Shown here in pieces: positions 1 to 15,217 of a stretch of 64,000 bases of DNA. The translations under genes and the position numbers were made by a program. The stretch's first letter is position 1. Every line of letters starts with the position of its first letter. The notes under the pieces are model-generated. The model had not been told where the DNA came from, searched no databases, and was given only the letters and a program-made list of their open reading frames with translations. Origin of the DNA: Gemmatimonas sp. Its GTDB lineage: Bacteria; Pseudomonadota; Alphaproteobacteria; SMXQ01. The stretch lies in assembly GCA_050260515.1 (NCBI GenBank), contig JBLNCI010000006.1:37273-101272 (forward strand), read 5' to 3'.

Positions 1-95
1 ACTCTCCGTCTCGCTCCGATCGTACAGCCCGGCCGCTGATGAACCGGGCGCATCCGCCGCCGACATTAGGACGGGATGCGATCCGTGCAAGCGGT

Positions 96-189
96 TTGTC
101 CACAGGTCGCACGCGAAGGCTTGCCGTCCTTTCCGGAAATCGGCATCATTTCGGGTAATGATGGCCGCTCCCTCGCGAGCGGCCTTTTT
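96..189 (+). promoter_or_regulatory. Promoter-like + hairpin/T-run module, copy 1
   Basis: TTGTCCACAGG 96-106; TTGCCG 121-126; perfect palindrome TTTCCGGAAA 130-139 inside a 17-nt spacer; CATCAT 144-149; hairpin GGCCGCTC(163-170)/GAGCGGCC(177-184) followed by TTTTT 185-189. Same layout and spacing as 507-599 and 8454-8546. Confidence 0.5.
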
Positions 190-365
190 CATTTGGCATC
201 CGGAGCGGGCGCCTGACGCTCCGCCACCTCGGCGGCGTTCTCGTACGCGTCGACGAGGCGCAGGAGCGTTTCGCGCATCTGGATATCGGAGGTGGATTGC
301 GCGAGCCAGCGGACGTTGCTGGCCCGCTCACGGCAGTCGCGCACGAGATCGGCGTGAACCCACAT
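189..365 (-). CDS. Small (58 aa) helical hypothetical protein, paralog of the 54-aa ORF at 8280-8444
   Basis: ATG at 365 inside track ORF 189..530; G/C-rich third codon positions. MWVHADLVRDCRERASNVRWLAQ...RETLLRLVDAYENAAE shares an A-x-x-C/A..L-A...R-x-x-LL-x-L...Y...AE pattern with the ORF at 8280. Its stop codon overlaps the T-run of module copy 1. Confidence 0.5.
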   Translation of the reverse strand: MWVHADLVRDCRERASNVRWLAQSTSDIQMRETLLRLVDAYENAAEVAERQAPAPDAK

Positions 366-373
366 GGGACACT

Positions 374-688
374 CTACTGTCTCAACTGTCTCAGATCGCG
401 CCGGCCTCGAACGAGAAACCTGCGCGTCCAATACGACACCAGAAAACGGTGACGGGTCGATGACACCGCGGAGCGTGCTGCGCAGCGCTGACGTTCCGCT
501 GCCGACTTTCCACAGGGCACACGGGAACACTTGCCGTCGTTTCCGGAAATCGGCATCATTTTGAGTAATGATGGCCGTTCCTCGCGAGCGGCCTTTTTTC
601 TTTCGTATCGCCTTCGGACGCTCTCGCGAACGCGCATGGCGCGCTCGCGTCGTTCGCGCGCCAGATCGGCGTGAAATGACATACGCAT
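374..688 (-). pseudogene. Degenerate tandem copy of the 189-365 small gene (internal deletion, stop lost)
   Basis: Begins MRMSFHADLARERRERAMRVRE, the same N-terminal pattern and flanking DNA as the 189-365 copy, but the middle of the gene is missing. Where the paralog has CAAATGAAAAAGG (stop), this copy reads CGAAAGAAAAAAGG. The frame therefore runs on through module copy 2 to TAG at 374-376. Confidence 0.35.
507..599 (+). promoter_or_regulatory. Promoter-like + hairpin/T-run module, copy 2
   Basis: TTTCCACAGGG 507-517; TTGCCG 531-536; TTTCCGGAAA 540-549 in a 17-nt spacer; CATCAT 554-559; hairpin GGCCGTTC(573-580)/GAGCGGCC(586-593) followed by TTTTTT 594-599. Confidence 0.5.
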
Positions 689-805
689 CTCAGTAGCGCA
701 GATCGTGGTCCGCTCGTCGCGGGCTTTGAAAACGGGGCTCGACGTTCGATGCCGATGTGAGGCAGCCGCCTGATGTCGGCACTTTTTCTCCATGCACCCG
801 ACCCG

Positions 806-838
806 CGGCATGGCGTCTTGCACGCCATGCCGTCTTTC
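806..838 (+). terminator. Hairpin with T-rich tail in the terS leader
   Basis: Perfect 10-bp stem CGGCATGGCG(806-815)/CGCCATGCCG(823-832), 7-nt loop, followed by TCTTTC. Confidence 0.4.
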
Positions 839-847
839 AAACACCGG

Positions 848-872
848 AGCCGCCGAAAGGCGGCTTTCTTCT
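848..872 (+). terminator. Intrinsic-terminator-like hairpin 15 nt upstream of the terS start
   Basis: AGCCGCC(848-854) GAAA tetraloop GGCGGCT(859-865) followed by TTCTTCTTT. The terS RBS TGGAGGG (877-883) and ATG 887 follow directly. Confidence 0.55.
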
Positions 873-886
873 TTCCTGGAGGGCTC

Positions 887-1387
887 ATGAAACTCTCGCG
901 CAGGCCCGCCCGCTGGCTCGCCGTGCATCGCCCGCGGAAGTGCAACAAGCTGGCGACGCGCCGTGTGTGTGCGCTGATCCGCCAGGGCTTCGGACTCCGC
1001 GAGATCGCGCGACGGCCCGGAATGCCGACGCTCGACACGCTGACGCGCTGGATCACGGAGGAGGACGCGTTTCGCGTCGAGTACGACCGCGCGCGCCAGA
1101 CCCAGACCGAAGTCTATGCCGACGACGTCGTGGCGCTCGCCGACGCTGTCGCTGACGGAGACCTCGCCGGCGTCAAGCTGCGGGTCGACGTGCGGAAGTG
1201 GCACGTCGTGCTCACCCGGGGCGCCGCGCGCCCCGGCGGCGACAAGGGGCTGGTGGACGAAGAGGTGTTACGGCGGTTCGCGGCCGCAACGGAGCGGCTG
1301 GCACGATTCGAGGCCGACGAGCTCGGCGTTGGGCCGAAGGAAAATGCGCCGCAATCCGGCGATACCATGCACGAGGACGACCGATGA
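887..1387 (+). CDS. Terminase small subunit (HTH DNA-binding type)
   Basis: ATG 887 with GGAGGG RBS inside ORF 773..1387. HTH-like GFGLREIARRPGMPTLDTLTRWI. Stop overlaps the terL start (ATGA at 1384-1387). Position is immediately upstream of the large terminase. Confidence 0.65.
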   Translation: MKLSRRPARWLAVHRPRKCNKLATRRVCALIRQGFGLREIARRPGMPTLDTLTRWITEEDAFRVEYDRARQTQTEVYADDVVALADAVADGDLAGVKLRVDVRKWHVVLTRGAARPGGDKGLVDEEVLRRFAAATERLARFEADELGVGPKENAPQSGDTMHEDDR

Positions 1388-2817
1388 GGTGGGCGACACG
1401 GGATCTCGCCACGGTCACCGCGCTGGGCGGGTGCGCAAGCGATCCGCTCCGGTTCGTGCTGACCGCGTTTGCGTGGGGTGAGGGCGAGCTTGCGGACCAC
1501 GCCGGCCCGGACAAGTGGCAGACCGAGGTGCTGCGCGCCATCGGCGACCACCTCAGGCTCGAGAAACCGTCCCGGCCCTTGCGCGTTGCCGTCGCGTCTG
1601 GCCACGGCGTCGGCAAGTCGGCGCTCGTCGCGTGGCTCATTTTGTGGGCGATGACCACCCGGCCTCACCTCGCCGCGGTTGTCACGGCCAACACCCAGCG
1701 GCAGCTCGAAACGAAGACGTGGCGGGAGCTCGCGCTCTGGCACAAGCGGCTGGTGAACCGTCACTGGTTCGCCTGGTCGCAGTCGAAGCTGGTCATGGTC
1801 AATCATCCGGACACCTGGTTCGCCGCCGCGGTGCCGTGGTCGCGGGAGCGGCCGGAGGCTTTCGCCGGGCTGCACGGGCGACACGTGATGGTGATCTACG
1901 ACGAGGCGTCCGCGATCCCGAACGAGATCTGGGACGTGTCGGAAGGCGCGATGACGACCCCGGGCGCGATGTGGTTCGCCTTCGGCAATCCCACGCGCAA
2001 CACCGGGCGGTTCCGCGACTGCTTCATGAAGTCGCGTACCTGGACGCGATTCAAGGTCGACGCGCGGACGTCGCGGCTCGTGAACCAGGCGCAGGTGCAG
2101 GCATGGATTGCCGAGCATGGCGTCGACTCCGACTTCGTGCGCATCCGCGTGACCGGTCGCTTTCCGAGCCAGAGCAACTGGCAGTTCATCTCGCGGGAGC
2201 TGACGGATCGCGCGCGCGCATCGCCCGGCGTCCCCTTCGGTCCGCTCGTCATGGGCATCGACGTGGCGCGGTTCGGCGACGATCAGACGGTGTTCCTGCT
2301 GCGGCAGGGCGAGGCGATCAAGAGGATCGAGCGGATACGCGGCGCCGACACGATGCGGGTGGCCGGCCGCGCGGCCGAGGCCATCGACCGATCGCGGCCG
2401 GCCGCGGTGTTCATCGATGGCGTCGGTGTGGGCGGCGGAGTGGTCGATCGGCTGAAGCAGCTCGGGTTCCCCGTCATCGAGGTGAACGGCGGAAGCCGGG
2501 CGACGGACGATCGCCGCTATGCCAACCGCCGCGCCGAGATGTGGGCGCGCGTCCGCGAGTGGCTGCAGGCCGGCGGCTGCCTGCCGCGGGAGGATGCGGC
2601 CCTGGCGGATGAGCTGTGCGCCCCCGAATACGGCTACGACGCCAGCAATCGCATCATCCTCGAGAAGAAGGACGACATGAAGAAACGCGGGCTCGCGTCC
2701 CCCGACGCGGCCGACGCGCTGGCGCTCACCTTCGCCGATCCGGTGTGGGTGCCGGCCGACGACGAGCCGCCGCCGCGCATCGAGACCGTCGCCGACTACG
2801 ACCCGCTGAAATGGTGA
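1384..2817 (+). CDS. terL: Terminase large subunit
   Basis: Internal ATG 1384 of ORF 1198..2817. Walker A-like VAVASGHGVGKSALVAWL. ATPase N-half and nuclease-like C-half (IDGVGVGGGVVDRL, DAADALALTF) typical of phage TerL. Confidence 0.85.
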   Translation: MRWATRDLATVTALGGCASDPLRFVLTAFAWGEGELADHAGPDKWQTEVLRAIGDHLRLEKPSRPLRVAVASGHGVGKSALVAWLILWAMTTRPHLAAVVTANTQRQLETKTWRELALWHKRLVNRHWFAWSQSKLVMVNHPDTWFAAAVPWSRERPEAFAGLHGRHVMVIYDEASAIPNEIWDVSEGAMTTPGAMWFAFGNPTRNTGRFRDCFMKSRTWTRFKVDARTSRLVNQAQVQAWIAEHGVDSDFVRIRVTGRFPSQSNWQFISRELTDRARASPGVPFGPLVMGIDVARFGDDQTVFLLRQGEAIKRIERIRGADTMRVAGRAAEAIDRSRPAAVFIDGVGVGGGVVDRLKQLGFPVIEVNGGSRATDDRRYANRRAEMWARVREWLQAGGCLPREDAALADELCAPEYGYDASNRIILEKKDDMKKRGLASPDAADALALTFADPVWVPADDEPPPRIETVADYDPLKW

Positions 2818-2824
2818 CTTCGAA

Positions 2825-3361
2825 ATGGTGACGTCGCTGCGCCCCCTCGACCGCGACGCCGTCGCGTTCGTGGCTGCGCACATGCGCGCCTGCGACCGCG
2901 AGGAGATCTTCGCCACACGCTGGGACGACGATGCCAGCGCCATCGCCGACGAGACGGTAGCCTGCGCCCGCTTCGGCGTGGTCGCGTGGGCGTCGGGCGC
3001 GCCGGTCGCCGTCGTCTGCGCCATGCCGCTGTGGCCCGGCGTGTGGACGGTCGCGATGTACGCCACCGACGCCTGGCTGATGGTCGCGGGTGCGGTGACG
3101 CGCTGGATCCGCCGCGAGCTGATGCCGAATGTCGCGGCCACGGGCGCGCATCGGGTCGAGTGCCGCTCGCTGGCGTCGCACGGGACGGCGCACCGCTGGC
3201 TGGAACGGCTCGGCGGGCGCCGCGAGGCGACGCTCACCGACTACGGCCGCAACCGCGAATGCTTCTACGTCTACGCGTGGACCTTGACCGACCTGACAGG
3301 AGATCACGATGTGCTTCGACAGCCCCTCGCCACCGCCGCCGCCACCGCCGCCGGGTCCTGA
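2825..3361 (+). CDS. Phage protein with GNAT/acetyltransferase-like fold (resembles proteins annotated internal virion protein A in some T7-supergroup phages)
   Basis: ORF 2825..3361, ATG start. Lies between terL and portal. The pattern ...RWIRRELMP...HRVECRSLASHGTAHRWLERLG...REATL..YG is reminiscent of N-acetyltransferase-fold phage proteins. Function not verifiable here. Confidence 0.45.
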   Translation: MVTSLRPLDRDAVAFVAAHMRACDREEIFATRWDDDASAIADETVACARFGVVAWASGAPVAVVCAMPLWPGVWTVAMYATDAWLMVAGAVTRWIRRELMPNVAATGAHRVECRSLASHGTAHRWLERLGGRREATLTDYGRNRECFYVYAWTLTDLTGDHDVLRQPLATAAATAAGS

Positions 3362-3503
3362 CAACGCCTCGGTGGAAGCCGCGGCGCTTGCCGAGCGCGA
3401 CCGCCTGCGGCGGGCCAGGGGCCGCGCCGCGACCATCCTGACCGGCGGCCTCGGCGACACGTCGCCGGCCATGGCCGCGGTCAAGCGCCTGCTGGGCCAG
3501 TGA
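3309..3503 (+). CDS. Small (64 aa) phage protein with N-terminal Met-Cys and a polyproline tract
   Basis: AGGAG RBS at 3299-3303 and ATG at 3309; very high GC3. MCFDSPSPPPPPPPPGP...RRARGRAATILTGGLGD. Overlaps the end of the upstream ORF by 53 nt in another frame. Confidence 0.6.
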   Translation: MCFDSPSPPPPPPPPGPDNASVEAAALAERDRLRRARGRAATILTGGLGDTSPAMAAVKRLLGQ

Positions 3504-3530
3504 CGCGTCGATCTTTTCCACCCTTGAGCT

Positions 3531-3690
3531 CCCCCTCACCCTGACCCTCTCCCCGGTGGGGAGAGGGATTTCGACGAGCGACACCGGCCACCGTCGCGCG
3601 CTCACGATGCTCCCGCCGAGAGGCGGTCGAGGATTGGCGACGGGTCGCTCCGAAAACCTTCTCCCAGAGGGAGACGGTGGGGTGAGGGGG
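3531..3690. repeat. MITE/REP-like palindromic element inserted in the phage late operon
   Basis: Terminal inverted repeats CCCCCTCACCC (3531-3541) and GGGTGAGGGGG (3680-3690). Each end carries an adjacent hairpin: CCCTCTCCCC-GGT-GGGGAGAGGG at 3545-3567 and TCTCCC-AGA-GGGAGA at 3660-3674. It is non-coding and fills most of the 225-bp gap before the portal gene. Confidence 0.6.
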
Positions 3691-3728
3691 CTTCGTGCAC
3701 CCGCGAACCACAACCGACGAGACATCCG

Positions 3729-5333
3729 ATGACCGACCTTTCCCCGTCGGCGCTGATCGAGCGCGCCGACGCCCTGAAGTGCGAGCGCGCCGCGCTCGAG
3801 CGCACCTGGCAGGAGATCGCGCAGGTGCTGCGGCCGGCGCGCGCCGACTTCGGCCTGCCGCCGACCCAGGACCGGCCCGAGCGCCGAGTGTTCGACTCGG
3901 CACCGGTGCTCGCCGCCGACAACCTCGCCGCCGGTCTGTGGGGGATGATCACCAACTCCGCGAACGCGTGGTTCGAGCTGCGCCACCCGGTCGCGGCGGT
4001 GAACGACCGCCAGGACGTGCGCCTGTGGCTCGACGCCTGCACCCGCATCCTGCGCGAAGCCTTCGCCGCGAATGGCCAGAAGTTCTACGCGCGTGTGCTC
4101 GAGCTGTACCAGGACCTCGTCGCGTTCGGGACCGCGGTGTTCTACGTCGACGAGGTGCCGCCCAATGTGACCCGTGCGGCGAGCCTGCACTTCTCCTGCC
4201 GCCATCTCGGCGAGTGTCTGATCGCGGAGAACGAGCTCGGCGAAGTCGACACGGTGTACCGCCGGTTCGCTCTGACGGCGCGCCAGGCGCAGCGGAAGTG
4301 GGGCGAGGCCGCGGGGTCGCGCGTGGCGCGGGCGCTCGAACGCAACCGGCCCGAGGAGCGCTTCGAGTTCCTCCACGCCGTGCTGCCCAACGACGAGCGC
4401 GACCCGGCGCGGGCCGACGCGAAGGGCATGGGCTGGCGCTCGGTCGTGATCGCGGTCGACGACCGGCGCGCCGTGAGCGAGGGCGGCTACCACGAGTTCC
4501 CGTTCATGGTGCCGCGGTGGGCGACGTCGGCGCGGCAGGTCTACGGCGACTCGCCGGCACTGCTCGCGCTCGCCGACGTCAAGGTGCTGAACCGGATGTC
4601 GAAGACCACCGTCGTCGCGGCCGAGAAGACCGTCGACCCGCCGTTGCTCGCCGCCGACGAGCGGGGCCTGCGCGGCATCCGCACGACGCCCGGCGGCATC
4701 ATCTACGGCGGCATCGATTCGCAGGGTCGCGTCCGCTATCAGCCGCTGCAGACCAACGCCCAGGTGAATCTCGGGCTCGAGTTGACGGAACAGCGGCGTC
4801 AGGCGATCCGCGAGGCGTTCTACTCGTCGCTGCTGCTGATGGTCGCGTCGCCGAACGCGACCGCCACCGAGGTGCTGGCGCGCGAGCAGGAGAAGCTCCG
4901 GCTGATGGGGCCGCACCTCGGCCGCATCGAATCCGAGTTCCTCGACCCGTGCATCGATCGCGTGTTCGCGGTGCTGATGCGGTCCGGCGCATTGCCGCCG
5001 CCGCCGCCGGCGGTGCTGGCGGTACCCGGCCTCAAGGTCGAGTACGTGTCGCCGCTCGCCCGCGCCCAGAAGGCGCAGGAGGGTGAGGCCATCGTCCGGA
5101 CGTTCGAGGCGATGGCGCCCCTGATGGCCGCGGCGCCGAGCGTCGTCGACAATTTCGACGTCGACGCGGTCGCCCGCGCGCTGGCCGATGCGTACGGAAT
5201 GCCGGTGCGGGCGATGCGCGACCCGCAGCTCGTCGCGACGTTGCGGGCAAGCCGCGCGGCCACCGCAGCACAGATCGGCGCGTTGGCGACGCGAGGCGCG
5301 GCCGTCGCCTCGCCGGACGGAGCCGCGCGATGA
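3729..5333 (+). CDS. Portal (head-to-tail connector) protein, podovirus T7/BPP-1 type
   Basis: 534-aa ORF between terminase and scaffold. N-terminal ERTWQEIAQVLRPARADF...LAAGLWGMITNSANAWFEL pattern is as in podovirus head-tail connector proteins. Stop overlaps the next start (ATGA). Confidence 0.75.
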   Translation: MTDLSPSALIERADALKCERAALERTWQEIAQVLRPARADFGLPPTQDRPERRVFDSAPVLAADNLAAGLWGMITNSANAWFELRHPVAAVNDRQDVRLWLDACTRILREAFAANGQKFYARVLELYQDLVAFGTAVFYVDEVPPNVTRAASLHFSCRHLGECLIAENELGEVDTVYRRFALTARQAQRKWGEAAGSRVARALERNRPEERFEFLHAVLPNDERDPARADAKGMGWRSVVIAVDDRRAVSEGGYHEFPFMVPRWATSARQVYGDSPALLALADVKVLNRMSKTTVVAAEKTVDPPLLAADERGLRGIRTTPGGIIYGGIDSQGRVRYQPLQTNAQVNLGLELTEQRRQAIREAFYSSLLLMVASPNATATEVLAREQEKLRLMGPHLGRIESEFLDPCIDRVFAVLMRSGALPPPPPAVLAVPGLKVEYVSPLARAQKAQEGEAIVRTFEAMAPLMAAAPSVVDNFDVDAVARALADAYGMPVRAMRDPQLVATLRASRAATAAQIGALATRGAAVASPDGAAR

Positions 5334-5629
5334 AGGCGGGACTCGTCTGGATCGCCAACGCCTTCGGCCCGCGCCGCGGCGCCGCGATCGCCGCCGCATA
5401 CCGCGCGGTGTTCGCCGGCGATGAAGGTCGGCGTGTGCTCGCCGATCTCGCCCGCTATTGCCGGTTCGGTACCACGAGCTTCGTCGCCGGCGACCCGCAT
5501 CAGACCGCGTTCAACGAGGGGGCGCGCGACGCCTTCCTCCACATCGTCGAACTGACGGGCATCACGGCGACCGAGGCCGCCGATCTGCTCGCACTCGACC
5601 AGTCCCACTCGCAACAGGAGCCCACATGA
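5330..5629 (+). CDS. Bbp19-like small phage protein
   Basis: 99-aa ORF directly after the portal, as in BPP-1-type phages. VFAGDEGRRVLADLARYCRF...GDPHQTAFNEGARDAFLHIVEL matches my recollection of the Bbp19-like domain. Confidence 0.5.
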   Translation: MKAGLVWIANAFGPRRGAAIAAAYRAVFAGDEGRRVLADLARYCRFGTTSFVAGDPHQTAFNEGARDAFLHIVELTGITATEAADLLALDQSHSQQEPT

Positions 5630-6462
5630 CCGAAGTCACCACCACTCACGCTGCTCCGGCCGCGACGCCGGCCCCGACCGCAGCGAGCGCGACAGCCCCA
5701 GCCACAACCGCCGACTGGAGCGCGTCGTTCGATGCCGATGCGCGGGCGCTGGTCGCGGCGAAGGGTTGGCGCAGCCCGGCGGACGCGCTCAGGAGCTACG
5801 CCCATCTCGAGCGGCTGATGGGTGGCGACCGCATCGCGGTGCCCGCGGCCGACGCCGCACCCGACGCGTGGGAGGCGGTCTACGCGAAGCTCGGTCGGCC
5901 GGCGAACGCCGACGGCTATCGCCTGCAGCGGCCCGAGGGCTTCGACGGCTACTCGGAGGATCTTGCCGCGGGATTCCGCCAGGCGGCATTCGCCGCCGGC
6001 TTGTCGGACCGCCAGGCCCGGACGCTGCACGACTTCTACGTCGCCACGGCGGCCGAGCGCGCCGACGCCGAGGCCGAGCAGGCGCAGGCGGCGAGCGCGG
6101 CGCTCGACCGCCACCTGCGCGCGACGTGGGGTCCGCAGTACGAGGCCAACGTGGCGCTGGCCAGGCGCGCGGCCCGCGCCTTCGCCCCGCCCGAAACGCT
6201 GGATGCGCTGCATGGGGCGATGGACGCGCCGGCGGTGCTGGCCCTGTTCGCGCGCATCGGCGCGGCGATGGGCGAGGACCGGCTGGTCGGCGACGGAGAT
6301 TCGTCGCACGCGCTCGCGCCCGAGCAGGCGCGCAGCGAGATCGCGCGGATCGAAGGGCAGATGACCGATCCCCGCAGCGCGCTGATGGACCGCTCGCATC
6401 CCGAGCACGACACGCTGGTGCGCCGCCGCGACGCGCTCTACCGCCTGGCGTTTCCGGGGTGA
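5626..6462 (+). CDS. Capsid scaffolding protein
   Basis: ATG 5626 (ATGA overlap with upstream stop) inside ORF 5458..6462. Ala/Glu/Arg-rich helical 278-aa protein in the canonical scaffold position. Confidence 0.6.
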   Translation: MTEVTTTHAAPAATPAPTAASATAPATTADWSASFDADARALVAAKGWRSPADALRSYAHLERLMGGDRIAVPAADAAPDAWEAVYAKLGRPANADGYRLQRPEGFDGYSEDLAAGFRQAAFAAGLSDRQARTLHDFYVATAAERADAEAEQAQAASAALDRHLRATWGPQYEANVALARRAARAFAPPETLDALHGAMDAPAVLALFARIGAAMGEDRLVGDGDSSHALAPEQARSEIARIEGQMTDPRSALMDRSHPEHDTLVRRRDALYRLAFPG

Positions 6463-6559
6463 GGGGATCGGGTGCGGCGCGCTTTCCTTTTGGCCGCACC
6501 TGTGGCGTGATGCGGCGGCTCACAACTGTCGCGACCACCAGGCGAGCACTCGGGGGACC

Positions 6560-7255
6560 ATGACGACGCATCCGCATCACCGCCAGAGCTACAGGTACTA
6601 CGACCTTCTCCTCGGCGCGTTCATCACCGTCTACCTCTGCTCGAACCTGATCGGCCCGGCGAAAGCCGTGTCGATGTGGGGATTCACCTTCGGCGCCGGC
6701 GTGCTGTTCTTCCCGATCTCCTACATCTTCGGCGACGTGATGACCGAGGTGTACGGCTACGCCCGCGCGCGCAAGGTGATCTGGTGCGGGTTCGGCGCGA
6801 TGATCTTCGCCTCGATCATGGCGACGGTCGTCGTCAAGCTGCCGCCGGCGCCGGGGTGGCCGTTCCAGTCGGCCTACGAGGAGATCTTCGGCCAGACGCC
6901 GCGGATCGTTTTCGCGTCGCTGGCCGCGTTCTTCGCCGGCGAGTTCGTGAATTCCTACGTGCTCGCGAAGATGAAGGTCTGGACCGAGGGGCGCTGGCTG
7001 TGGACGCGCACCATCGGCTCGACCATCGCGGGCGAGGGCGTCGATTCGCTGATCTTCTATCCGCTGGCGTTCTACGGCACCTGGGAGACGCCGCTGGTGA
7101 TGAGCGTGATGATGACCAACTACGTGCTGAAGGTGCTGGTCGAGGTGGTGATGACGCCGGTGACCTACAAGATCGTCGGCGCCCTGAAGCGATCGGAGCA
7201 GGAGGACTACTTCGATACCAAGACCGACTTCACGCCGTTCAGCCTGAAGACGTGA
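6560..7255 (+). CDS. yhhQ: Queuosine-precursor (preQ0/preQ1) transporter YhhQ, DUF165/VUT family
   Basis: 231-aa polytopic membrane protein. FPISYIFGDVMTEVYGYARARKVIW and RTIGSTIAGEGVDSLIFYPLAFYG motifs are characteristic of YhhQ-family proteins. A host-type gene inside the phage head module. Confidence 0.8.
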   Translation: MTTHPHHRQSYRYYDLLLGAFITVYLCSNLIGPAKAVSMWGFTFGAGVLFFPISYIFGDVMTEVYGYARARKVIWCGFGAMIFASIMATVVVKLPPAPGWPFQSAYEEIFGQTPRIVFASLAAFFAGEFVNSYVLAKMKVWTEGRWLWTRTIGSTIAGEGVDSLIFYPLAFYGTWETPLVMSVMMTNYVLKVLVEVVMTPVTYKIVGALKRSEQEDYFDTKTDFTPFSLKT

Positions 7256-7262
7256 GGCGGCG

Positions 7263-8195
7263 GTGACGACGTCTGCGAGGCCGGCAACGCCGGCGACGGC
7301 TGCGGCGCGAGTCCGCCTCGCGTACGTGATCGCCGCCTTGCCGCCGCTGTTCTGGGCCGGGAACTTCCTGATCGCGCGCGCCATGCGCGACGCGATCCCG
7401 CCGCTCGAGATGTCGTTCTGGCGCTGGACCGTCGCGTTCCTGATCCTGTTGCCGTTCGGGGTCGGGGCGATCCGTTCCAGTCTGCCGCAGATCCGCCGCG
7501 AGCTGCCGATGCTGAGCGTGCTCGCGCTGCTCGGGGTCACCGGGTTCAGCTCGCTGGTCTACGTCGCGTTGCACCACACGACAGCGGTCAACGCCGCGCT
7601 GATCAACTCGCTGATGCCGGTCGCCACGTTCCTGTTCGCGCTGGCGCTGCTGCGCGATCGGCCAACGGCGGCGCAGACCGTCGGCGTGGCGCTGGCGCTC
7701 GCGGGTGCCTCGACCATCATCGCCCGCGGCGAGATCGGCAACGTGCTGGCGCTTGACGTCAACCGCGGCGAGCTCCTGGTGATCGCGGCGCTGGTGTGCT
7801 GGGCGCTCTACACCGTGCTGATCAAGTGGCGCCCGACGCGGCTCGCGCCGTCGGCGTTCCTGCCGGTAACGTTCGGGATCGGCGCCGCGTTCCACGTGCC
7901 GTTCGTTGTCTGGGAGCGCCAATGGTCGGGCGGGTTCGCGGTGACGACGGAGGCGGTGGCGGCGATCCTCTACTTCGCGGTGTTCCCGTCGATCCTCGCG
8001 TACGTGTTCTGGAACCGCGCCGTCGCGGCGCTCGGGCCCGGACGCACCAGCACCTACATGTATTTGATGCCGATCTTCTCGGCGGCGCTCGGGGTCTGGC
8101 TGCTGGGGGAGCCGTTCGGCGCCTACCACGCCGCCGGCGTCGGCCTGGTGTTCGCCGGCATCGCTCTCGTCACCCGGCGGCCGAAAGGCGCCTGA
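7263..8195 (+). CDS. EamA/DMT-family transporter
   Basis: 310 aa, about 10 predicted TM helices, two EamA-like halves (LFWAGNFLIAR..., ...LLGEPFGAYHAAGVGLVFAGIALV). GTG start at 7263 is uncertain. Confidence 0.8.
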   Translation: MTTSARPATPATAAARVRLAYVIAALPPLFWAGNFLIARAMRDAIPPLEMSFWRWTVAFLILLPFGVGAIRSSLPQIRRELPMLSVLALLGVTGFSSLVYVALHHTTAVNAALINSLMPVATFLFALALLRDRPTAAQTVGVALALAGASTIIARGEIGNVLALDVNRGELLVIAALVCWALYTVLIKWRPTRLAPSAFLPVTFGIGAAFHVPFVVWERQWSGGFAVTTEAVAAILYFAVFPSILAYVFWNRAVAALGPGRTSTYMYLMPIFSAALGVWLLGEPFGAYHAAGVGLVFAGIALVTRRPKGA

Positions 8196-8279
8196 CGATC
8201 ACTTGATGTCCCGTTTGATCCAGATCAAAGCCGCGGACGAGCCGGCGCGGAGAATGCCCCCTCATTGGGAGGGGATATC

Positions 8280-8444
8280 ATGGTCTACAGCGCCGAGAGC
8301 TTCGTTGACCGCGCCGAGGAATGCGTGCGGCTGGCCAATCTCGCCGAGGACGAACTGATCCGGCAGGAGCTTCTGCAGCTCCGCCAGTCGTATCTCCAGA
8401 CCGCGGAGCGGCTGCAGAAGATCGCGCGCGGCGCGAAGAGGTAA
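8280..8444 (+). CDS. Small (54 aa) helical hypothetical protein, paralog of 189-365
   Basis: Not in the ORF track (below cutoff). ATG 8280 preceded by GGGAGGGG; nearly all third positions are G/C. MVYSAESFVDRAEECVRLANLAEDELIRQELLQLRQSYLQTAERLQKIARGAKR; TAA at 8442-8444. Confidence 0.6.
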   Translation: MVYSAESFVDRAEECVRLANLAEDELIRQELLQLRQSYLQTAERLQKIARGAKR

Positions 8445-8453
8445 CGCGAGACT

Positions 8454-8546
8454 TTCCACAGGGCGGCCGCCGACGGTTGCCGTCCTTTCCGGAAATCGCT
8501 ATCGTTTTGCATCATGATCGGCGTCGGGTCTCCCGGCGCCGATTTT
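8454..8546 (+). promoter_or_regulatory. Promoter-like + hairpin/T-run module, copy 3 (ahead of the major capsid gene)
   Basis: TTTCCACAGGG 8454-8464; TTGCCG 8477-8482; TTTCCGGAAA 8486-8495 in a 17-nt spacer; TATCGT 8500-8505; hairpin ATCGGCG(8517-8523)...CGCCGAT(8537-8543) with inner CGGG/CCCG pairs, followed by TTTTCATTTTC. Confidence 0.5.
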
Positions 8547-8735
8547 CATTTTCGGGCACCTTCCGGTGCCGCGTTTCGGGGCAAGCCGCGGCCACTCGTC
8601 CGGTGGAGCGGCTCCCGTGACCGCCGCAAAGCCGGCCGACGACGGCATCGTCATGCCGAGGACCGCGGGTCCGCGCTCGTGAGAGCCGGGCAACCCCTCC
8701 GACCGAATCGCAACCCGACTCACGGAGGGCTCTTC

Positions 8736-9599
8736 ATGAGCACCCAGATCACGACCGCGTTCGTCGAACAGTATTCGGCGAACGTGCTTCAGCTTTCGCA
8801 GCAGCGCGGAAGCCGGCTGCGCGCCGCCGTGCGCGTCGAGCCGGTGACCGGCAAGACCGCGGTCATCGACCGCATCGGCGTGGTGGCGGCGAAGCGCCGC
8901 ACCTCGCGCCACGCCGATACCCCGCAGCTCGACACGCCGCACTCGCGCCGGCGCGTGTCGCTGGTCGACTACGACTGGTCCGACATGATCGACGACGCCG
9001 ACAAGGTGCGGACGCTGGTCGACCCGGCGAGCCCGTACGCCATGGCCGGCGCATGGGCCATGGGCCGGGCGATGGACGACGAGGTCATCGCCGCGTTCAC
9101 CGGCGCGGCGAGCGCCGGCGTCGACGGCTCGGTGTCGGTCGCTCTGCCCGGAACGCAGCAGATCGCCCACGCCTCGGCGGGGCTCACCATCGACAAGCTG
9201 CTCCAGGCGAAGGAGCGGCTCGACGGCGCGGACGTGGACGACGCGATGGCGCGCTACGTCGCCGTCACCGCGAAGCAGGTGACCAACCTGCTCTCGGCCA
9301 CCGAGGTGAAGTCCGCCGACTACAACACGGTGAAGGCATTGGTGCGCGGGGAAATCGACACCTTCCTCGGCTTCAAGTTCATCCGCACCGAGCGGCTGGG
9401 CAAGGATTCGGGCGGCAACCGTCAGGTGATCGCCTGGGCCGAGGACGGGGTCGTGCTCGCGGTCGGCAAGGAGCCGGTCGCGCGCGTCACCGAGCGGGCG
9501 GACAAGAACTACTCGACCCAGGTGTTCTACTCGATGGCGATCGGCGCGGCCCGCCTCGAGGAGGCCAAGGTCGTCGCGATCGCCTGCGTCGAATCGTGA
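8736..9599 (+). CDS. Major capsid protein
   Basis: ATG 8736 with GGAGGG RBS inside ORF 8514..9599; 287 aa. Position after scaffold. MSTQITTAFVEQYSANVLQLSQQRGSRLR... and C-terminal ...YSTQVFYSMAIGAARLEE are typical of podovirus coat proteins of this group. Confidence 0.75.
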   Translation: MSTQITTAFVEQYSANVLQLSQQRGSRLRAAVRVEPVTGKTAVIDRIGVVAAKRRTSRHADTPQLDTPHSRRRVSLVDYDWSDMIDDADKVRTLVDPASPYAMAGAWAMGRAMDDEVIAAFTGAASAGVDGSVSVALPGTQQIAHASAGLTIDKLLQAKERLDGADVDDAMARYVAVTAKQVTNLLSATEVKSADYNTVKALVRGEIDTFLGFKFIRTERLGKDSGGNRQVIAWAEDGVVLAVGKEPVARVTERADKNYSTQVFYSMAIGAARLEEAKVVAIACVES

Positions 9600-9624
9600 G
9601 CCGCAGCGGGCAGGAGAACCAGAG

Positions 9625-10068
9625 ATGACCGCTTACAAGTCCGACCAGGTGACGGGGCTCGACGCCACGCCGCCGTCGCTGCCCAAGGCCAACGAGCGCC
9701 ACGGCCGGGTGCGGCTCCACTACTGGAGCTTCACGACCGGGGCTTCCGCCGGCCCGGCGGTGAACGACACGATCGTCGTCGCCCGGCTGCCGCAGGGTGC
9801 CCGCATCCTCGGCGGCCGGCTCGCCAACGAGGCGATGTCGACCGGCGCCTCGACCGCGCAGGTGACGATCGGGGTCGCCGGCGACGCCGCTCGCTACCTC
9901 GAGGCGAGCTCGGTCGATGCGGCCGGAGGCGTGTCGTTCGCCGACACGCCGGCGCGCAACTTCGGCGACGAGTTCGCGGCGGCGACCGACGTCGTCGCGA
10001 CCGCGCTCGGCGAGGCGTGGGCCGCCGCCAGGAAGTTCAACGGCTACATCCTGTACGCCGTCGACTAG
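9625..10068 (+). CDS. Putative capsid decoration/cement protein (call based on position)
   Basis: 147-aa ORF directly after the capsid gene and followed by a strong terminator. BPP-1-type phages encode a cement protein at this position. No diagnostic motif recognised. Confidence 0.5.
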   Translation: MTAYKSDQVTGLDATPPSLPKANERHGRVRLHYWSFTTGASAGPAVNDTIVVARLPQGARILGGRLANEAMSTGASTAQVTIGVAGDAARYLEASSVDAAGGVSFADTPARNFGDEFAAATDVVATALGEAWAAARKFNGYILYAVD

Positions 10069-10093
10069 GCGTCCGGCCACGGACGCGTGACGA

Positions 10094-10122
10094 GGGCGGC
10101 GGGGCGACCCGCCGCCCTTTTT
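10094..10122 (+). terminator. Intrinsic terminator after the capsid/decoration genes
   Basis: Perfect 10-bp stem GGGCGGCGGG(10094-10103)/CCCGCCGCCC(10108-10117), GCGA loop, TTTTT 10118-10122. Confidence 0.75.
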
Positions 10123-10145
10123 CTTCATCCCGATCGGAATCCGCC

Positions 10146-10730
10146 ATGACCTCGGTCGTCGCCATCTGCAACCGTGCGCTCGACATGCTGGGCGCCGAGC
10201 CCGTGACGTCGCTCGCCGACAACACCAAGGCCGCGCGCCTGTGCGCGCGGAATTTCGACGCGGTCCGTGACGCGGTACTGCGCGCCTATCCGTGGAACGC
10301 GGCGGTGCGACGGGCGTCGCTGGCCGCGCTGTCGGAGCCGCCCGCGTGGGGTTTCGCGCGGCAGTTCCAGCTTCCCGAGGGGCCGGTGCCCGAACCGTGC
10401 CTGCGGATCCTCGCCATCGACGGCGAGACCTGCGGGATGCGCTACCGCATCGAGGGGCGACGCGTGCTCAGCGACGCGGCCGCGCCGCTCGATGTGCTGT
10501 ACATCGCGCGGATCGAGGATCCGGCGCAGCTCGATCCCATGCTGCAGGACGTGATCGCGACCCGGCTCGCGGCCGATCTCTCCTACAGCCTCACCGCGTC
10601 GGCCGCGCTCGGCCAGGCGCTGATGGAGATCTATCAGGCCAAGCTCGCCGAGGCGCGGGCGACCGACGCGCAGGAGGGCACCGCCGACCGTCTGTTCGCG
10701 AGCTGGGGCGTCGACGGAGACCAAACATGA
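10146..10730 (+). CDS. Tail tubular protein A / adaptor (T7 gp11-like)
   Basis: ATG 10146 inside ORF 10017..10730. ICNRALDMLGAEPVTSLADNTKAARLCARNFDAVRDAVLRAYPWNAA parallels T7 gp11 VNDILASIGEPPVSTLE...[22 protein letters not shown]. Confidence 0.7.
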   Translation: MTSVVAICNRALDMLGAEPVTSLADNTKAARLCARNFDAVRDAVLRAYPWNAAVRRASLAALSEPPAWGFARQFQLPEGPVPEPCLRILAIDGETCGMRYRIEGRRVLSDAAAPLDVLYIARIEDPAQLDPMLQDVIATRLAADLSYSLTASAALGQALMEIYQAKLAEARATDAQEGTADRLFASWGVDGDQT

Positions 10731-12973
10731 CGCGCGCCTCTCCGCTGCTCGCCTCGTTCAACGGCGGCGAGTGGTCGCCCAACCTGTACGGGCGCAGCGA
10801 TCTGTCGCGGTACGGCAGCGCCTGCAAGCGGCTCGAGAACTTCATCCCGCTGGTGCAGGGCGCGGCGACGCGGCGTCCCGGGACGCGGTTCATTGCCGCG
10901 ACCAAGGACACCGCCGGGGTCCGGCTGATCCCCTTCGAGTTCTCGATCGCCCAGGCGTACGTGATCGAGGCCGGCGACGGCTACTTCCGCTTCTACATGG
11001 GCGGCGGGCGCATCGAGACCGCGCCGGGCATGCCGTACGAGATCGCGACGCCGTTCCTTGCCCAGCACCTCGATCGCCTCAAGTGGACGCAATCGGCGGA
11101 CGTGCTCTACCTCTGCCATCCCGAGCTGCAGCCGCGCAAGCTCACCCGCACCGGTCACACCAGCTGGACGCTGACGCCGCTCGACGCCCAGGACGGCCCC
11201 TACCTCGACGTGAACGGGGACGCGGCGAAGACGCTTCAGCCATCCGGCACGACCGGGACGATCACCGTCACCGCCGCCGGATTCGCCCCGTTCGCGGCGA
11301 GCGACGTCGGCCGGCCGCTGCGGATCCGTCACGGCGTGACGTGGGGCTGGGCGCGGATCACCGCCTTCATGTCGCCCACCCAGGTGACGGCCGACGTGAA
11401 GGCCGCGTTCGCAAGCGCCACCGCCTCGTCGGAGTGGCGGCTTGGTGCGTGGTCGGCGGCGAACGGTTGGCCCGGGTGCGTCAGCTTCCATGAGGAGCGC
11501 CTGGTCTTCGCCGGGAGCCTCTCCAACCCGCAAACGCTGTGGCTGTCCGTGTCGGGCGAGTTCGAGTCCTTCACGCCGACGCGGCCCGACGGCACCGTAC
11601 TCGACGACTCGGCGATCACGGTCACCATCGCGGACGACCGGGTCAACGCGATCCGCTGGCTGTCCTCCGGTAAGGAGCTTGCCATCGGCACGGTCGGCGG
11701 CGAGTTCACCGCGGCCGCGTCGAGCCTCAACGAGGCGATCACGCCGTCCAACATCACCGTCCGCCGCGAAAGCACGATCGGCGTGGCCGACGCCATGCCT
11801 GTCCGCATCGGTCAGTCGGTGCTCTATGTCCAGCGCGCCCGCCGCCGCCTGATGGAGTTCGGCTACTCGCTCCAGAGCGACGGCCATGTGTCGACCGAGC
11901 TCTCGATCCTGGCGCGGCATCTGCTGCGGTCCGGACTGAGGCATATCGCCTGGCAGCAGGAGCCGTGGTCGGTGCTGTGGGGCTGCCGCGACGACGGCGC
12001 GCTGATCGGCGTCACGTACCTGCCGGAGCAGCAGGTTACCGGGTGGCACCGTCACAGCCTCGGCGGCACCGGCGTCGCCGTGCTGTCGCTGGCGACGATC
12101 CGTGGCTCCGATGGCGACGAACTGTGGCTCGCGGTCGAGCGCACCATCGGCGGTGTCCCGAAGCGCTCGATCGAGCTTCTGCAACCGGACTTTGCGCCGG
12201 ATGACGAGAGCAATCGCGGCGCCGCATTCTTCGTCGACTGCGGGCTGACGTTCGATGGAACGATGAACGTCGCGCTGACGCCGGGCGCCACGGCCGGCCC
12301 CGACGTGATCTTCACCGCTGGCGGCGCCGCCTTCGACGCCGGCAGCGTGGGACGCGAGATCCACCGCCGTTACGGTCCGGGCGACGCACGACTTGCCCGC
12401 GCGGAGGTGACGGCGGTCGCGTCCGCGACGCAGGTGCACGCGCGGATCATCGCGCCCTTTCCGGACACTGTGACGATTCCCGCCGGCAGCTGGCGTCTGA
12501 CCGCGAGCACGCTCGGAGGTCTCGACCATCTCGAGGGCGAGACGGTGCAGATCCTCGCCGATGGCGCGAGCCACGCCGACAAGCAAGTGAGCGGCGGAAG
12601 CGTCGTGCTCGACCGCAACGCGGCGGTCGCTCACGTCGGATTGCCCTACCGCAGCACGCTCGAAACGCTGTCGCTGGAGGCGGGGTCGCTTGCCGGCACG
12701 GCGCTATCCAAGGCGAAGCGCATCCATCGCGCCGCGGTGCGCCTACTCGACACGCTCGGCTGCCGGGTCGGGCGCGACGGCACCCTCGACGAAGTTCTGT
12801 TTCGCTCCAGCGCCGATCCGATGGACGAGGGGCCGCAGCTCTTCACCGGCGACAAGGTCATCGAATTCCCCGCCGGGTGGGATCGCGAGATGACGGTGAC
12901 CGTGCTTCAGGATCTGCCGTTGCCCTGCACCGTGACCGCGATCGTTCCCCAAGTGACGACCAATGACGGCTGA
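10727..12973 (+). CDS. Tail tubular protein B / nozzle (T7 gp12-like)
   Basis: ATG 10727 (ATGA overlap) inside ORF 10292..12973; 748 aa. Begins MTRASPLLASFNGGEWSPNLYGRSDLSRYGSACKRLENFIPLVQGAATRRPGTRF. Size and position match gp12. Confidence 0.7.
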   Translation: MTRASPLLASFNGGEWSPNLYGRSDLSRYGSACKRLENFIPLVQGAATRRPGTRFIAATKDTAGVRLIPFEFSIAQAYVIEAGDGYFRFYMGGGRIETAPGMPYEIATPFLAQHLDRLKWTQSADVLYLCHPELQPRKLTRTGHTSWTLTPLDAQDGPYLDVNGDAAKTLQPSGTTGTITVTAAGFAPFAASDVGRPLRIRHGVTWGWARITAFMSPTQVTADVKAAFASATASSEWRLGAWSAANGWPGCVSFHEERLVFAGSLSNPQTLWLSVSGEFESFTPTRPDGTVLDDSAITVTIADDRVNAIRWLSSGKELAIGTVGGEFTAAASSLNEAITPSNITVRRESTIGVADAMPVRIGQSVLYVQRARRRLMEFGYSLQSDGHVSTELSILARHLLRSGLRHIAWQQEPWSVLWGCRDDGALIGVTYLPEQQVTGWHRHSLGGTGVAVLSLATIRGSDGDELWLAVERTIGGVPKRSIELLQPDFAPDDESNRGAAFFVDCGLTFDGTMNVALTPGATAGPDVIFTAGGAAFDAGSVGREIHRRYGPGDARLARAEVTAVASATQVHARIIAPFPDTVTIPAGSWRLTASTLGGLDHLEGETVQILADGASHADKQVSGGSVVLDRNAAVAHVGLPYRSTLETLSLEAGSLAGTALSKAKRIHRAAVRLLDTLGCRVGRDGTLDEVLFRSSADPMDEGPQLFTGDKVIEFPAGWDREMTVTVLQDLPLPCTVTAIVPQVTTNDG

Positions 12974-13008
12974 TCGGCCGCTGGACACACCAAGAAAGGA
13001 TTTTTCCG

Positions 13009-13395
13009 ATGTGCTACATGGCCGCAATTCCGATCGCCCTGGCGGCGGCATCCACTCTCCAGAGCATGCAAGCCGCGCGCGCGCAGGCGTCGGCCCAGCG
13101 GCAGATCGCGGACGTCGCTCGCGAGCAAGGCCAGATCGCGGCGGAGGCCGTGCGAAATCGCTCGGCCGCGACGCTTGCGTCGGCGCGGGTGGGACTTTCG
13201 CGCGCGGGGATCACTCCCGACGGCTCGCCCGCGGATGTGCTCGCTGCCAATGCAGCGGCCGACGAGCTCGGCGCCCAGACCGCGGCGTGGCGTGGCCTCG
13301 CCCGCCCTGGACCGTATGGCGGCGCCGTCGCGCAATCGAATCTCCGAGCCGCGTCGCTTGCCATCCGGCAGCTCGGCTCGATGTGGGCCAACTGA
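13009..13395 (+). CDS. Small (128 aa) Ala-rich virion protein candidate, N-terminal Met-Cys
   Basis: ORF 13009..13395 lies between the nozzle and fibre genes, where T7 carries internal virion proteins. Hydrophobic N-terminus MCYMAAIPIALAAAS, then a helical Ala/Gln/Arg-rich region. Confidence 0.55.
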   Translation: MCYMAAIPIALAAASTLQSMQAARAQASAQRQIADVAREQGQIAAEAVRNRSAATLASARVGLSRAGITPDGSPADVLAANAAADELGAQTAAWRGLARPGPYGGAVAQSNLRAASLAIRQLGSMWAN

Positions 13396-13417
13396 TCCCA
13401 GCACTGGTGAGGAAGCG

Positions 13418-15199: not shown

Positions 15200-15217
15200 T
15201 ATAAATGTCGGCAACCA

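Follow-up and report, generated by a model that had tools for sequence, protein, structure and literature searches.

Why are the packaging genes and the capsid genes of the phage-like element at this locus each headed by a short, promoter-like module with a terminator-like hairpin at its end? We addressed this question in the window, meaning the whole stretch of 64 kb that was analysed, and in related loci, here given L numbers. Most likely, the ~95-nt module is a promoter that stops its own transcripts after ~40 bases, unless a factor encoded by the element makes the RNA polymerase terminator-proof. Such a switch would most likely belong to a kind already known, here in a version that is new and very compact. 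The specific version that we favor, and consider probable, is an activator-dependent late promoter that is joined both to an intrinsic terminator and to a site where a processive antiterminator is loaded, with a Q-like/GafZ-like logic.

The window carries three copies of the module in the same orientation (Table 1), as an earlier note on this DNA had claimed. They share a 22-nt core, TTGCCGTC[C/G]TTTCCGGAAATCG, which had exact matches at 121, 531 and 8477, was absent elsewhere in the window and had an expected count of 0 (100 shuffles). The repeat search gave a family of 73 nt, whose other two members are 88% and 73% identical to copy 1, and the profile search of the window returned these three copies only, all on the plus strand. 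All copies have a -35-like TTGCCG, a 17-nt spacer with the palindrome TTTCCGGAAA and a first -10-like hexamer (CATCAT, CATCAT and TATCGT), in agreement with the earlier note. A second -10-like hexamer, better conserved, abuts the hairpin. The three hairpins with their T runs were recognized as terminator-like, and the scan placed T runs on the plus strand only. In every copy, CACAG and TTGCCG are 20 nt apart. From the first hexamer to the hairpin start there are 13 nt in copies 1 and 2, within the 11–13 nt reported before, but 10 nt in copy 3. Similarly, the 33-nt spacing between two TTTCC sequences, previously attributed to all three copies, holds for copies 2 and 3 and fails in copy 1, which has TTTGTCCACAGG. 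A DnaA-box-like site is a better description of the distal box than a TTTCC half-site. The sequence TTCCGGAA was found in the three modules and at one other site of the window only. Against the sigma-70 consensus, the module promoter scored 8/12, under the scan threshold, which is what one would expect if it depends on an activator. That copies 1 and 2 are stacked, as the earlier note pointed out, is no part of the design: the two copies are a local, lineage-specific tandem duplication of 410 bp.

Table 1 Modules, genes and terminators at the phage-like element, in window positions.
Feature	Position	Strand	Remarks
Copy 1, whole module	96..194	+	
Copy 1, distal box TTGTCCACA	96..104	+	DnaA-box-like, 8/9 positions match TTATCCACA; block kept in 7 modules
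Copy 1, core promoter	121..149	+	TTGCCG 121-126, 17-nt spacer, palindrome TTTCCGGAAA 130-139, CATCAT 144-149
Copy 1, second -10-like hexamer AATGAT	157..162	+	A2, T3, A5, T6 invariant in 7 modules; candidate sigma-dependent pause element, alternatively the true -10
Copy 1, intrinsic terminator GGCCGCTC/GAGCGGCC, then TTTTTCATTT	163..194	+	Folding energy -18.6 kcal/mol; 163-184 terminator-like
Small 58-aa gene between copies 1 and 2	189..365	-	Stop codon 189-191
Copy 2, whole module	506..603	+	Ortholog of the relatives' terS module; 86% identical to L131:7799-7897
Copy 2, 5' half	506..559	+	Distal box CTTTCCACA 506-514, TTGCCG 531-536, palindrome 540-549, CATCAT 554-559
Copy 2, 3' half	567..593	+	AATGAT 567-572, hairpin 573-593, T run
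Second copy of the small gene, internally deleted	600..682	-	Within the 410-bp tandem duplication
Extra hairpin in the terS leader	806..838	+	Clean 11 bp, weak T run; from fold, not called by the terminator scan
Extra intrinsic terminator	846..877	+	~10 nt before the terS ATG; 846-867 called terminator-like
terS, first gene of the packaging operon	887..1387	+	Sf6_terminase PF20901, E 3.5e-20
Copy 3, whole module	8452..8553	+	Heads the capsid operon; L131 homology block begins exactly at 8450
Copy 3, 5' half	8452..8505	+	Distal box CTTTCCACA 8452-8460, TTGCCG 8477-8482, palindrome 8486-8495, TATCGT 8500-8505
Copy 3, 3' half	8513..8544	+	CATGAT 8513-8518, 13-bp hairpin 8516-8544, T run
Conserved non-coding leader, copy 3 to capsid ATG	8554..8734	+	87% identity to L131
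Major capsid gene	8735..9599	+	L131 ortholog carries PF19821 Phage_capsid_2
Strong intrinsic terminator after the capsid and 147-aa genes	10092..10129	+	Upstream of the 893-aa tail gene

The start of terS and the reality of the two extra hairpins before it, both proposed from the sequence before, held up, and the terminator nearest to the ATG is conserved in position in L131 (7968-7992). Up to three further terminators lie in series ahead of terS, and every possible start site has further plus-strand terminators downstream, with no room for another promoter. The strong terminator after the 147-aa gene is followed by no module; the 893-aa product of the next gene is a phrog_376 tail protein. 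The leader between copy 3 and the capsid gene differs from that of L131 by indels of 1, 2, 4 and 7 nt. Variable morons immediately precede both modules; L131 has a kinase there, and the window has Vut_1/EamA. The 58-aa gene is an ortholog of a 62-aa gene upstream of the L131 module (BLASTP 42% identity, E 1e-8), and between the 58-aa and 54-aa module-adjacent small proteins the homology was not significant (E 0.07).

Comparison with relatives gave seven distinct modules, from at least four elements, with one fixed geometry. It consists of a DnaA-box-like 9-mer, TTGCC(G/A), a 17-nt spacer with TTCCGGAA, YATNNT, 7 nt, NAT(G/C)AT, and a GC hairpin 0–1 nt later with a T run. The palindrome is in the spacer of all seven, although promoter spacers normally drift, and in L131 it is restricted to the two modules. 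A2 and T6 of the second hexamer, located 7 nt past the first, are likewise invariant, while the first hexamer of module L131B is TATCAC, without the -7 T. Promoter and then terminator, on the strand of the late genes, is the order in 7/7 modules. Copy 2, ahead of terS, and copy 3, ahead of the capsid gene, have orthologous modules in relatives from other metagenomes; this positional correspondence, before terS and before the capsid gene, was found with L131 and L121. These orthologous places are kept even though terS is only 64% identical. In L136, one module precedes a cytochrome c gene and not a phage gene.

The transcribed part is the least conserved in sequence, with only the -10-like hexamer kept there. 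As the earlier note had proposed, hairpin stems of the terS and capsid types are unrelated in sequence, yet all of them fold (-14.5 to -23.9 kcal/mol) and all have T runs. The hairpins were judged by single-sequence folds, since RNAalifold on the MAFFT alignment was out of register. Among 2.9 million viral contigs searched with four pattern scans, L121 was the sole true match; the matches in L130 and L149–L154 were chance or coding repeats. A scan of genome contigs with TTGCCGNNNTTTCCGGAAATC, too loose a pattern, gave at least 118 loci, all chance matches in unrelated taxa. The two-box pattern used on metagenomes was too strict, fixing positions at which the relatives differ, and its one match was by chance, in coding DNA. 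Megablast of positions 1–9700 against GenBank phages returned no match.

For the late activator upstream of the window that the earlier note envisaged, there are two candidate genes on the window's own 111-kb contig (locus L135, same sample). One encodes a 122-aa protein with a Bac_DnaA_C (DnaA-domain-IV) domain. Its L131 ortholog gave PF08299 with E 5e-17, matched the DnaA DNA-binding domain 3pvp (E 2e-11) and kept the HTTV motif. Two genes downstream, a 130-aa DUF6362 protein is encoded. Its structure model (pLDDT 80.5) matched small phage proteins at E 2.3e-4 and, weakly, phage proteins named sigma-70 region 4 or ECF sigma (E 0.07–0.9); PDB sequence searches, with the single sequence and with a profile, gave no match. 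In a second DUF6362 clade, the gene is directly upstream of terS-like and large-terminase (Terminase_6) genes. Divergent from the DnaA_C operon, an HTH+S24 repressor gene, keeping the GDSM Ser and the VKR Lys, was found in L131, L136, L155 and L157. It was not seen in the genome of the window because of a contig break, L135 ending 244 nt before its place. Fused, GafA-like DnaA_C+DUF6362 proteins were found neither in the best 150 of 1822 hits nor in the profile search, and tblastx of the regulatory loci against the window gave GC-rich noise only.

From the anatomy, the conservation and position of the modules and the presence of these regulator genes, we infer a model for the binding sites, the start, the pause and the antitermination. 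The DnaA-domain-IV (GafY-like) protein, with TTNTCCACA as candidate target, would bind the DnaA-box-like distal box ~54 nt upstream of the start and help the sigma-70 RNA polymerase to use the weak TTGCCG-17-YATNNT promoter. Transcription would begin ~7 nt past the first hexamer (near 155–157, 565–567 and 8511–8513). The second -10-like hexamer, at about +2 to +7, may hold sigma and pause the polymerase just before the hairpin is made. The DUF6362 protein, potentially a GafZ-like/Q21-like factor with a sigma-region-4-like HTH, would sit on the TTCCGGAA palindrome between -35 and -10 and move onto the paused polymerase, rendering it terminator-resistant. Without this factor, the transcript would end at the terminator of the module, after ~35–40 nt. 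With it, read-through of this terminator and of the later ones (846-867, 10092-10119) would give expression of the packaging, head, tail and lysis genes. The logic that the earlier note had suggested, with a promoter, a factor site between -35 and -10 and then a terminator, is supported by the comparative evidence: orthologous placement, invariant geometry, the hexamer 7 nt past the -10, the later terminators to be read through and the candidate regulator genes on the window's own contig all speak for it.

The likeness to lambdoid PR' proposed before applies to the overall logic, but among characterised systems GafYZ and BrrG, which regulate gene transfer agents, come closer than lambda Q itself. 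As at PR' (Q-lambda, Q21, Q82), -35 and -10 flank a putative factor site, the first bases to be transcribed include a -10-like element with the NANNNT form of Q-type pause elements, and a terminator precedes the late genes; processive antitermination would be the common mechanism. The -10-like element of lambda is AACGAT, compared with AATGAT here. Judged from sequence, the conserved -10-like element 7 nt past the -10 would be the fourth hallmark of Q-type circuits. Unlike in the lambdoid phages, no Q-family gene was found (no Q-family Pfam match in the window or L131). The candidate instead is the DUF6362 protein, for which Q21 had the best PDB TM-score, a non-significant match (0.50, Foldseek E 1.8). 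Further differences are the leader (~40 nt, in lambda 194 nt), the second, DnaA-like activator with its distal box, and two loading promoters per element.

BrrG (Bartonella GTA, bgtA-K operon; Korotaev et al., bioRxiv 10.1101/2024.11.20.624540) is a Q21-like factor of a domesticated phage element, likewise from Alphaproteobacteria. This factor acts by binding at the promoter and requires a -10-like NANNNT element 5 bp past it, and a leader terminator follows. The BaGTA leader, however, is long (864 bp), BrrG is encoded in a separate replication module, and no DnaA-like co-activator is described for BaGTA in that study. In the Caulobacter crescentus GTA, the GafZ site is a palindrome between -35 and -10 of the promoter PgtaT, and GafZ bypasses terminators (Tran and Le 2024, PMC11150451; Gozzi et al. 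2022, PMC9632790). The DnaA_C gene, the DUF6362 gene and the divergent S24 repressor gene match, by analogy, the GafY/GafZ/RogA layout: a DnaA-domain-IV-like activator gene comes first, a small protein likened by fold and position to one with a sigma-like HTH follows, and the relatives have a LexA/CI-like HTH+S24 repressor. The module resembles PgtaT in its apparent upstream activator site and in the inverted repeat that -35 and -10 enclose. In both, the structural cluster contains terminators that appear to require bypassing, and the palindrome is limited to structural-gene promoters, as for GafZ with its single target. On the other hand, the palindromes are unrelated (TTCCGGAA here, GCGCCCG-CTGGCGC in CcGTA). 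The predicted activator box is at about -54 and DnaA-box-like, in contrast to -123/-113 with an IHF site between in CcGTA. The terminator begins at about +8 instead of after the first gene, and there are two modules per cluster. RogA, unlike the repressor of the relatives, is without both the catalytic Ser and Lys. The structural genes, with a T7-type portal, are podovirus-like, unlike those of the RcGTA type.

Several features count against the preferred reading: the terminator follows the start at a far shorter distance than it does in lambda (+194) or CcGTA, the L136 module heads a cytochrome c gene, the Q21 match is not significant, no fused protein was among the hits searched, and the first hexamer is a poor -10, the second being better. 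This last point favors a promoter embedded in the terminator, which we consider rather unlikely overall. In such a promoter the second hexamer would be the real -10, and DUF6362, bound at TTCCGGAA 17–19 nt upstream of it, would replace -35 recognition; GafA was originally proposed as a sigma-like factor. Starting inside the 5' arm of the hairpin, such transcripts could not form the terminator, which would only stop read-through from upstream morons or from a weak constitutive TTGCCG promoter. The second hexamer is indeed better conserved and nearer to TATAAT than the first, it always abuts or overlaps the stem, and morons do immediately precede both modules. This reading does not account for the invariant TTGCC or for the exact 17 nt that separate it from the first hexamer, though, and the terminators at 846-867, 10092-10119 and L131 7968-7992 would still block these transcripts, so that antitermination would be needed anyway. 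The serial terminators ahead of terS also speak against an ordinary repressor-controlled promoter followed by ordinary leaky terminators of small genes or morons, with no antiterminator. Here the palindrome would be an operator for the S24 or another repressor, and it does occupy the classic repressor position between -35 and -10; moreover, the 58-aa gene on the minus strand also has its end at the hairpin of copy 1, and copy 3 follows a small ORF (8265-8444). We regard this as improbable given the constant promoter-then-terminator order, the T runs on the plus strand only, and a small gene that is not always beside the module (a 535-aa gene lies between them in L131, and L121 has no small gene).

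A promoter with an immediate terminator is also the anatomy of an sRNA gene, and the modules could encode very short regulatory RNAs of 35–45 nt. The best Rfam 15 match of a module was SorX at 526-599, with 17.7 bits and E 1.9, far under its gathering score of 46.6; only tRNAs reached their gathering scores. The low conservation of the transcribed part, the unrelated stems of the two types, the lack of a conserved unpaired seed region and the conserved position directly ahead of operons make this very unlikely. Whole-module RNA structures had z-scores of -1.3 to -3.8 on the plus strand, with folds differing between copies, and a CATCATT/AATGATG pairing is present in copies 1 and 2 only, thus not conserved. 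A module-encoded peptide was also rejected, as the L121 module lacks an ATG and the potential peptides show no conservation. Least probable, to a degree that we would hardly consider it, is an intergenic repeat of the host genome, either a generic REP-like one or a mobile one. Several copies, a tandem duplication and the copy before the cytochrome c gene would fit, but many scattered copies in both orientations, typical of REP/MITE repeats, were not found. The profile search gave no copy in L135, L155 and L157 or in the window's host DNA (~45 kb), the viral contigs held a single true match, and all copies have one orientation relative to the late genes.

It is possible, though we lean against it, that the element represents an undescribed, podovirus-derived GTA-like particle system, which a lineage of soil Alphaproteobacteria keeps at one chromosomal locus. 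A minimal cascade would then switch it on, and the module would be the most compact antiterminator-loading promoter known. In that case, a cleavable CI-like repressor would control the DnaA-domain-IV activator and the DUF6362 antiterminator, and the 95-nt module would be used twice per cluster, with the pause element directly adjoining the terminator and transcripts ending at about +40.

If this GTA-like reading is true, the DUF6362 proteins (~1800 clusters at 50% identity) would make up a large family of antiterminators for late genes, Q21-like/GafZ-like in kind. The finding also ties an uncharacterised Pfam family to a testable function. That processive antitermination controls gene transfer agents was shown only recently, in two unrelated cases, with the proposal that it is general among Alphaproteobacteria; the module would add a third, structurally different phage-like element with the same logic. 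The cis element is very small (95 nt) and sharply bounded, and its six parts (activator box, -35, factor palindrome, -10, pause element and terminator) should be separately mutable. For annotation, it could serve as a sequence signature of the late promoters of such elements. It would also explain how morons can reside inside a lethal late operon without switching the operon on.

With respect to gene content, neither integrase nor replication genes were found in L131 1.9–18.5 kb or in window 1–18.3 kb; a gene at 18268-19332, considered as an integrase, was rejected, as it encodes a 2-hydroxyacid dehydrogenase. The T7-type portal, the Sf6-type terS and this lack of integrase and replication genes are the traits that enter the GTA-like reading. 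A GTA_holin_3TM gene was present. The left flank, with an Asn synthase and an amidohydrolase, was the same in L131, L135, L136 and L155.

The 22-nt core TTGCCGTC[C/G]TTTCCGGAAATCG matched exactly at three places in the window, which has a G+C content of 68%, where none was expected by chance. A repeat search recovered a 73-nt family covering the module, and profile searches of the 64 kb found the same three copies, as had been claimed, all on the + strand. Each copy also carried the hairpin and T run attributed to it. The element parts and their spacing agreed with the earlier note, except that copy 1 reads TTTGTCC and not TTTCC. A second −10-like hexamer directly abutting each hairpin had been overlooked. 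A 410-bp tandem duplication comprises copies 1 and 2 together with the small minus-strand gene adjoining each; the second copy of that gene carries an internal deletion. Copy 2 is the ancestral one, since it shares 86% identity with the only terS module of the related contig L131.

Relatives were obtained by protein-guided retrieval, pattern scans of public collections being mostly uninformative. The viral contig L121 (portal 78% identical) had one module, 30 nt ahead of terS. L131 (terS 64% identical; identical copies L132–L134) had two, which precede terS and the capsid gene. The seventh, in L136, was flanked by a cold-shock gene and a cytochrome c gene; the DnaA_C/DUF6362 cassette lay 5 kb away and the contig end 500 nt away. 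The window's host DNA, roughly 45 kb, contained no module, nor did that of the related loci L135, L155 and L157, and we therefore rejected a generic repeat.

The spacing of the parts was identical in 7/7 modules. A −35-like TTGCC(G/A) is followed by a 17-nt spacer with the invariant TTCCGGAA and by hexamer 1, YATNNT (A2 and T3 invariant, T6 in six of the seven). Hexamer 2, NAT(G/C)AT (A2, T3, A5 and T6 invariant), comes 7 nt later, and the hairpin begins 0–1 nt past it or overlaps it, ending in a T run. A protein machine such as RNA polymerase imposes this kind of fixed distance between short DNA signals. The stems were of two unrelated sequence types, GGCCGYTCC/GGAGCGGCC before terS and GATCGGCGTCGG/CCGGCGCCGATT before the capsid gene. 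Within each type there were small compensated differences, and every stem folded (−14.5 to −23.9 kcal/mol). Complementarity between the two hexamers was limited to copies 1 and 2, and therefore the hexamers are conserved as DNA signals and not for RNA pairing. The promoter matched the sigma-70 consensus at 8/12 positions, under the scan threshold, which fits a promoter requiring an activator. TTGCCG is preceded, at a distance of 20 nt, by the distal box. Its sequence was TTGTCCACA in copy 1 and CTTTCCACA in most other modules, and exact copies of it occurred at modules only. The box resembles a DnaA box, for which the E. coli consensus is TTATCCACA.

Coordinates of features in the window and in related contigs.
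Feature	Position	Strand	Remark
Cores of copies 1, 2, 3	121; 531; 8477	+	exact matches
Terminators of copies 1, 2, 3	163-184; 573-593; 8516-8544	+	terminator-like calls
Hairpin before terS	806-838	+	real, but T run weak
Hairpin before terS	846-867	+	terminator-like
Terminator before terS, L131	7968-7992	+	orthologous place, loop differs from the window's
Small helical ORFs (54-62 aa)	189-365; 600-682; 8265-8444	-; -; +	adjoin modules
Vut_1	6560-7255		transporter moron
EamA	7263-8195		transporter moron
Capsid leader	8554-8734		L131:16911-17090
Terminator after capsid and 147-aa genes	10092-10119		strong
Three small genes	14110-15156	-	128, 71, 73 aa
Seventh module	L136:15565-15676
Gap DUF6362 to terS-like gene	L144:10396-10587; L158:10441-10595		150-190 nt
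tRNA-Ala(agc) call	61743-61829	-	87 nt

The first 18.3 kb of the window held a phage-like cluster, nearly all on the + strand. It starts with terS (Sf6 type), terL, an internal virion protein and a T7-type portal, followed by a Bbp19-like and a protease/scaffold gene. A transporter moron, with Vut_1 (queuosine-precursor or vitamin uptake type) and EamA, separates these from a small ORF, copy 3, and the genes for the capsid, a virion protein and an 893-aa tail protein. Lysis genes were a lysozyme and a GTA-type holin with three TMs; a candidate integrase after the holin was rejected, being a host dehydrogenase. The + strand order is broken by three small minus-strand genes of high GC3 that matched no family. 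After them come the methyltransferase, lysozyme and holin genes, which had no module ahead of them.

Nucleotide homology between the window and L131 begins precisely where the capsid module does. Just upstream the genes differ, with EamA in the window versus a 535-aa gene in L131, where Vut_1 is followed by a 57-aa small ORF and the 535-aa gene, without EamA. Variable cargo is thus accepted at this site, just upstream of the module's terminator. From the capsid module to the capsid ATG, the roughly 190-nt leader was 87% identical between the two elements, versus 75–82% for their coding DNA. Its indels of 1, 2, 4 and 7 nt indicate that it is non-coding; it had no Rfam match and a fold z-score of just −1.5. 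Of the small ORFs adjoining modules, that of 58 aa is orthologous to one ahead of the L131 module (E 1e-8) and showed no significant similarity to that of 54 aa; none had a family match.

The earlier proposal of a late promoter, factor site and terminator acting as a switch was supported by the comparative evidence, with the TTTGTCC of copy 1 and the second hexamer as corrections. Judged by its sequence, the module appears to be a known kind of switch in an unusually compact form, in which hexamer 1 would serve as the −10 and hexamer 2 as a pause element. As a rival, hexamer 2 could itself be the −10, with transcription starting within the stem. Whichever start site is used, later terminators stand between the module and the genes, and any transcript begun at the module has to read past them. 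Two hairpins lie before terS in the window and one in L131. The last ends about 10–25 nt ahead of the terS start, leaving no room for a further promoter. No module lies between the terminator downstream of the capsid gene and the tail gene. These later terminators are the strongest sequence argument for processive antitermination.

Candidate regulators were found at the left end of the element. The terS protein and the DUF6362 protein P0026 were both recorded on one 111,026-bp contig. In L135, from the same sequencing sample as the window, the order was DnaA_C (122 aa), an 84-aa gene and DUF6362 (130 aa, P0026), adjoining amidohydrolase and asparagine synthase genes. In L131 these genes are arranged likewise and adjoin the same host genes; it also has a divergent HTH+S24 repressor, followed by a histidine-kinase moron, the small gene, the module and terS. 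The DnaA_C protein matched the DnaA DNA-binding domain (E 2e-11) and kept the HTTV motif of the DnaA-box-reading helix, which fits the distal box.

The DUF6362 family comprised 1822 representative clusters, the best 150 of which were all about 120–230 aa long. An AlphaFold model (pLDDT 80.5) had no significant PDB match. The best TM-score was to the antiterminator Q21 (0.50, E 1.8, not significant), and the search also touched LuxR/sigma-4 HTH domains. Among viral models it matched small unnamed phage proteins (E 2.3e-4, TM 0.62–0.68), and proteins named sigma-70 region 4 or ECF sigma weakly (E 0.07–0.9). A second clade of the family has its DUF6362 gene immediately before a terS-like gene and Terminase_6, and here too an S24 repressor and a constant host flank are adjacent. 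The gap before the terS-like gene in two of its loci, L144 and L158, held a conserved CTTTACAGGGTTTATA(A/G)GATCG block, then a GC hairpin differing in sequence between the two, which may be an analogous module of other specificity.

In Caulobacter, the LexA-like RogA represses GafY (DnaA domain IV-like) and GafZ (sigma-like HTH); the GTA promoter has an upstream GafY site and a GafZ site, a palindrome between −35 and −10, and GafZ enables polymerase to bypass terminators (PMC11150451, PMC9632790). The Q21-like BrrG of Bartonella requires a NANNNT −10-like element 5 bp after the promoter, and the authors of that study described structural features common to Q21, BrrG, GafZ and GafA (bioRxiv 10.1101/2024.11.20.624540). 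All cis hallmarks of these circuits were present in the module sequence, and the related elements encode candidate regulators of the same three types as GafY, GafZ and RogA. In contrast to the known systems, the palindrome is unrelated in sequence, the putative activator site is DnaA-box-like at about −54, the terminator would begin at about +8 with a leader of about 40 nt, there are two modules per cluster, the repressor retains its catalytic residues, and the structural genes are of podovirus type. Our analysis makes assignment to the GafYZ family likely; assignment to the Q protein family was not supported.

The element has genes for packaging, head, tail and lysis as well as a holin of GTA type, and its regulatory end abuts asparagine synthase and amidohydrolase genes in four different assemblies. 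No integrase or replication gene was seen in the cluster (window 1–18261, with L131/L135 for the left part). The whole may represent a domesticated GTA-like element derived from a podovirus. The related elements and the named DUF6362 relatives were alphaproteobacterial (an Alphaproteobacteria MAG, Paramagnetospirillum, Zavarzinia), versus the label “Gemmatimonas sp.” of the MAG, and the contig may be mis-binned. The tRNA-Ala(agc) called by ARAGORN was absent from the Rfam matches at gathering score and probably represents either a miscall or an unusual tRNA-like sequence.
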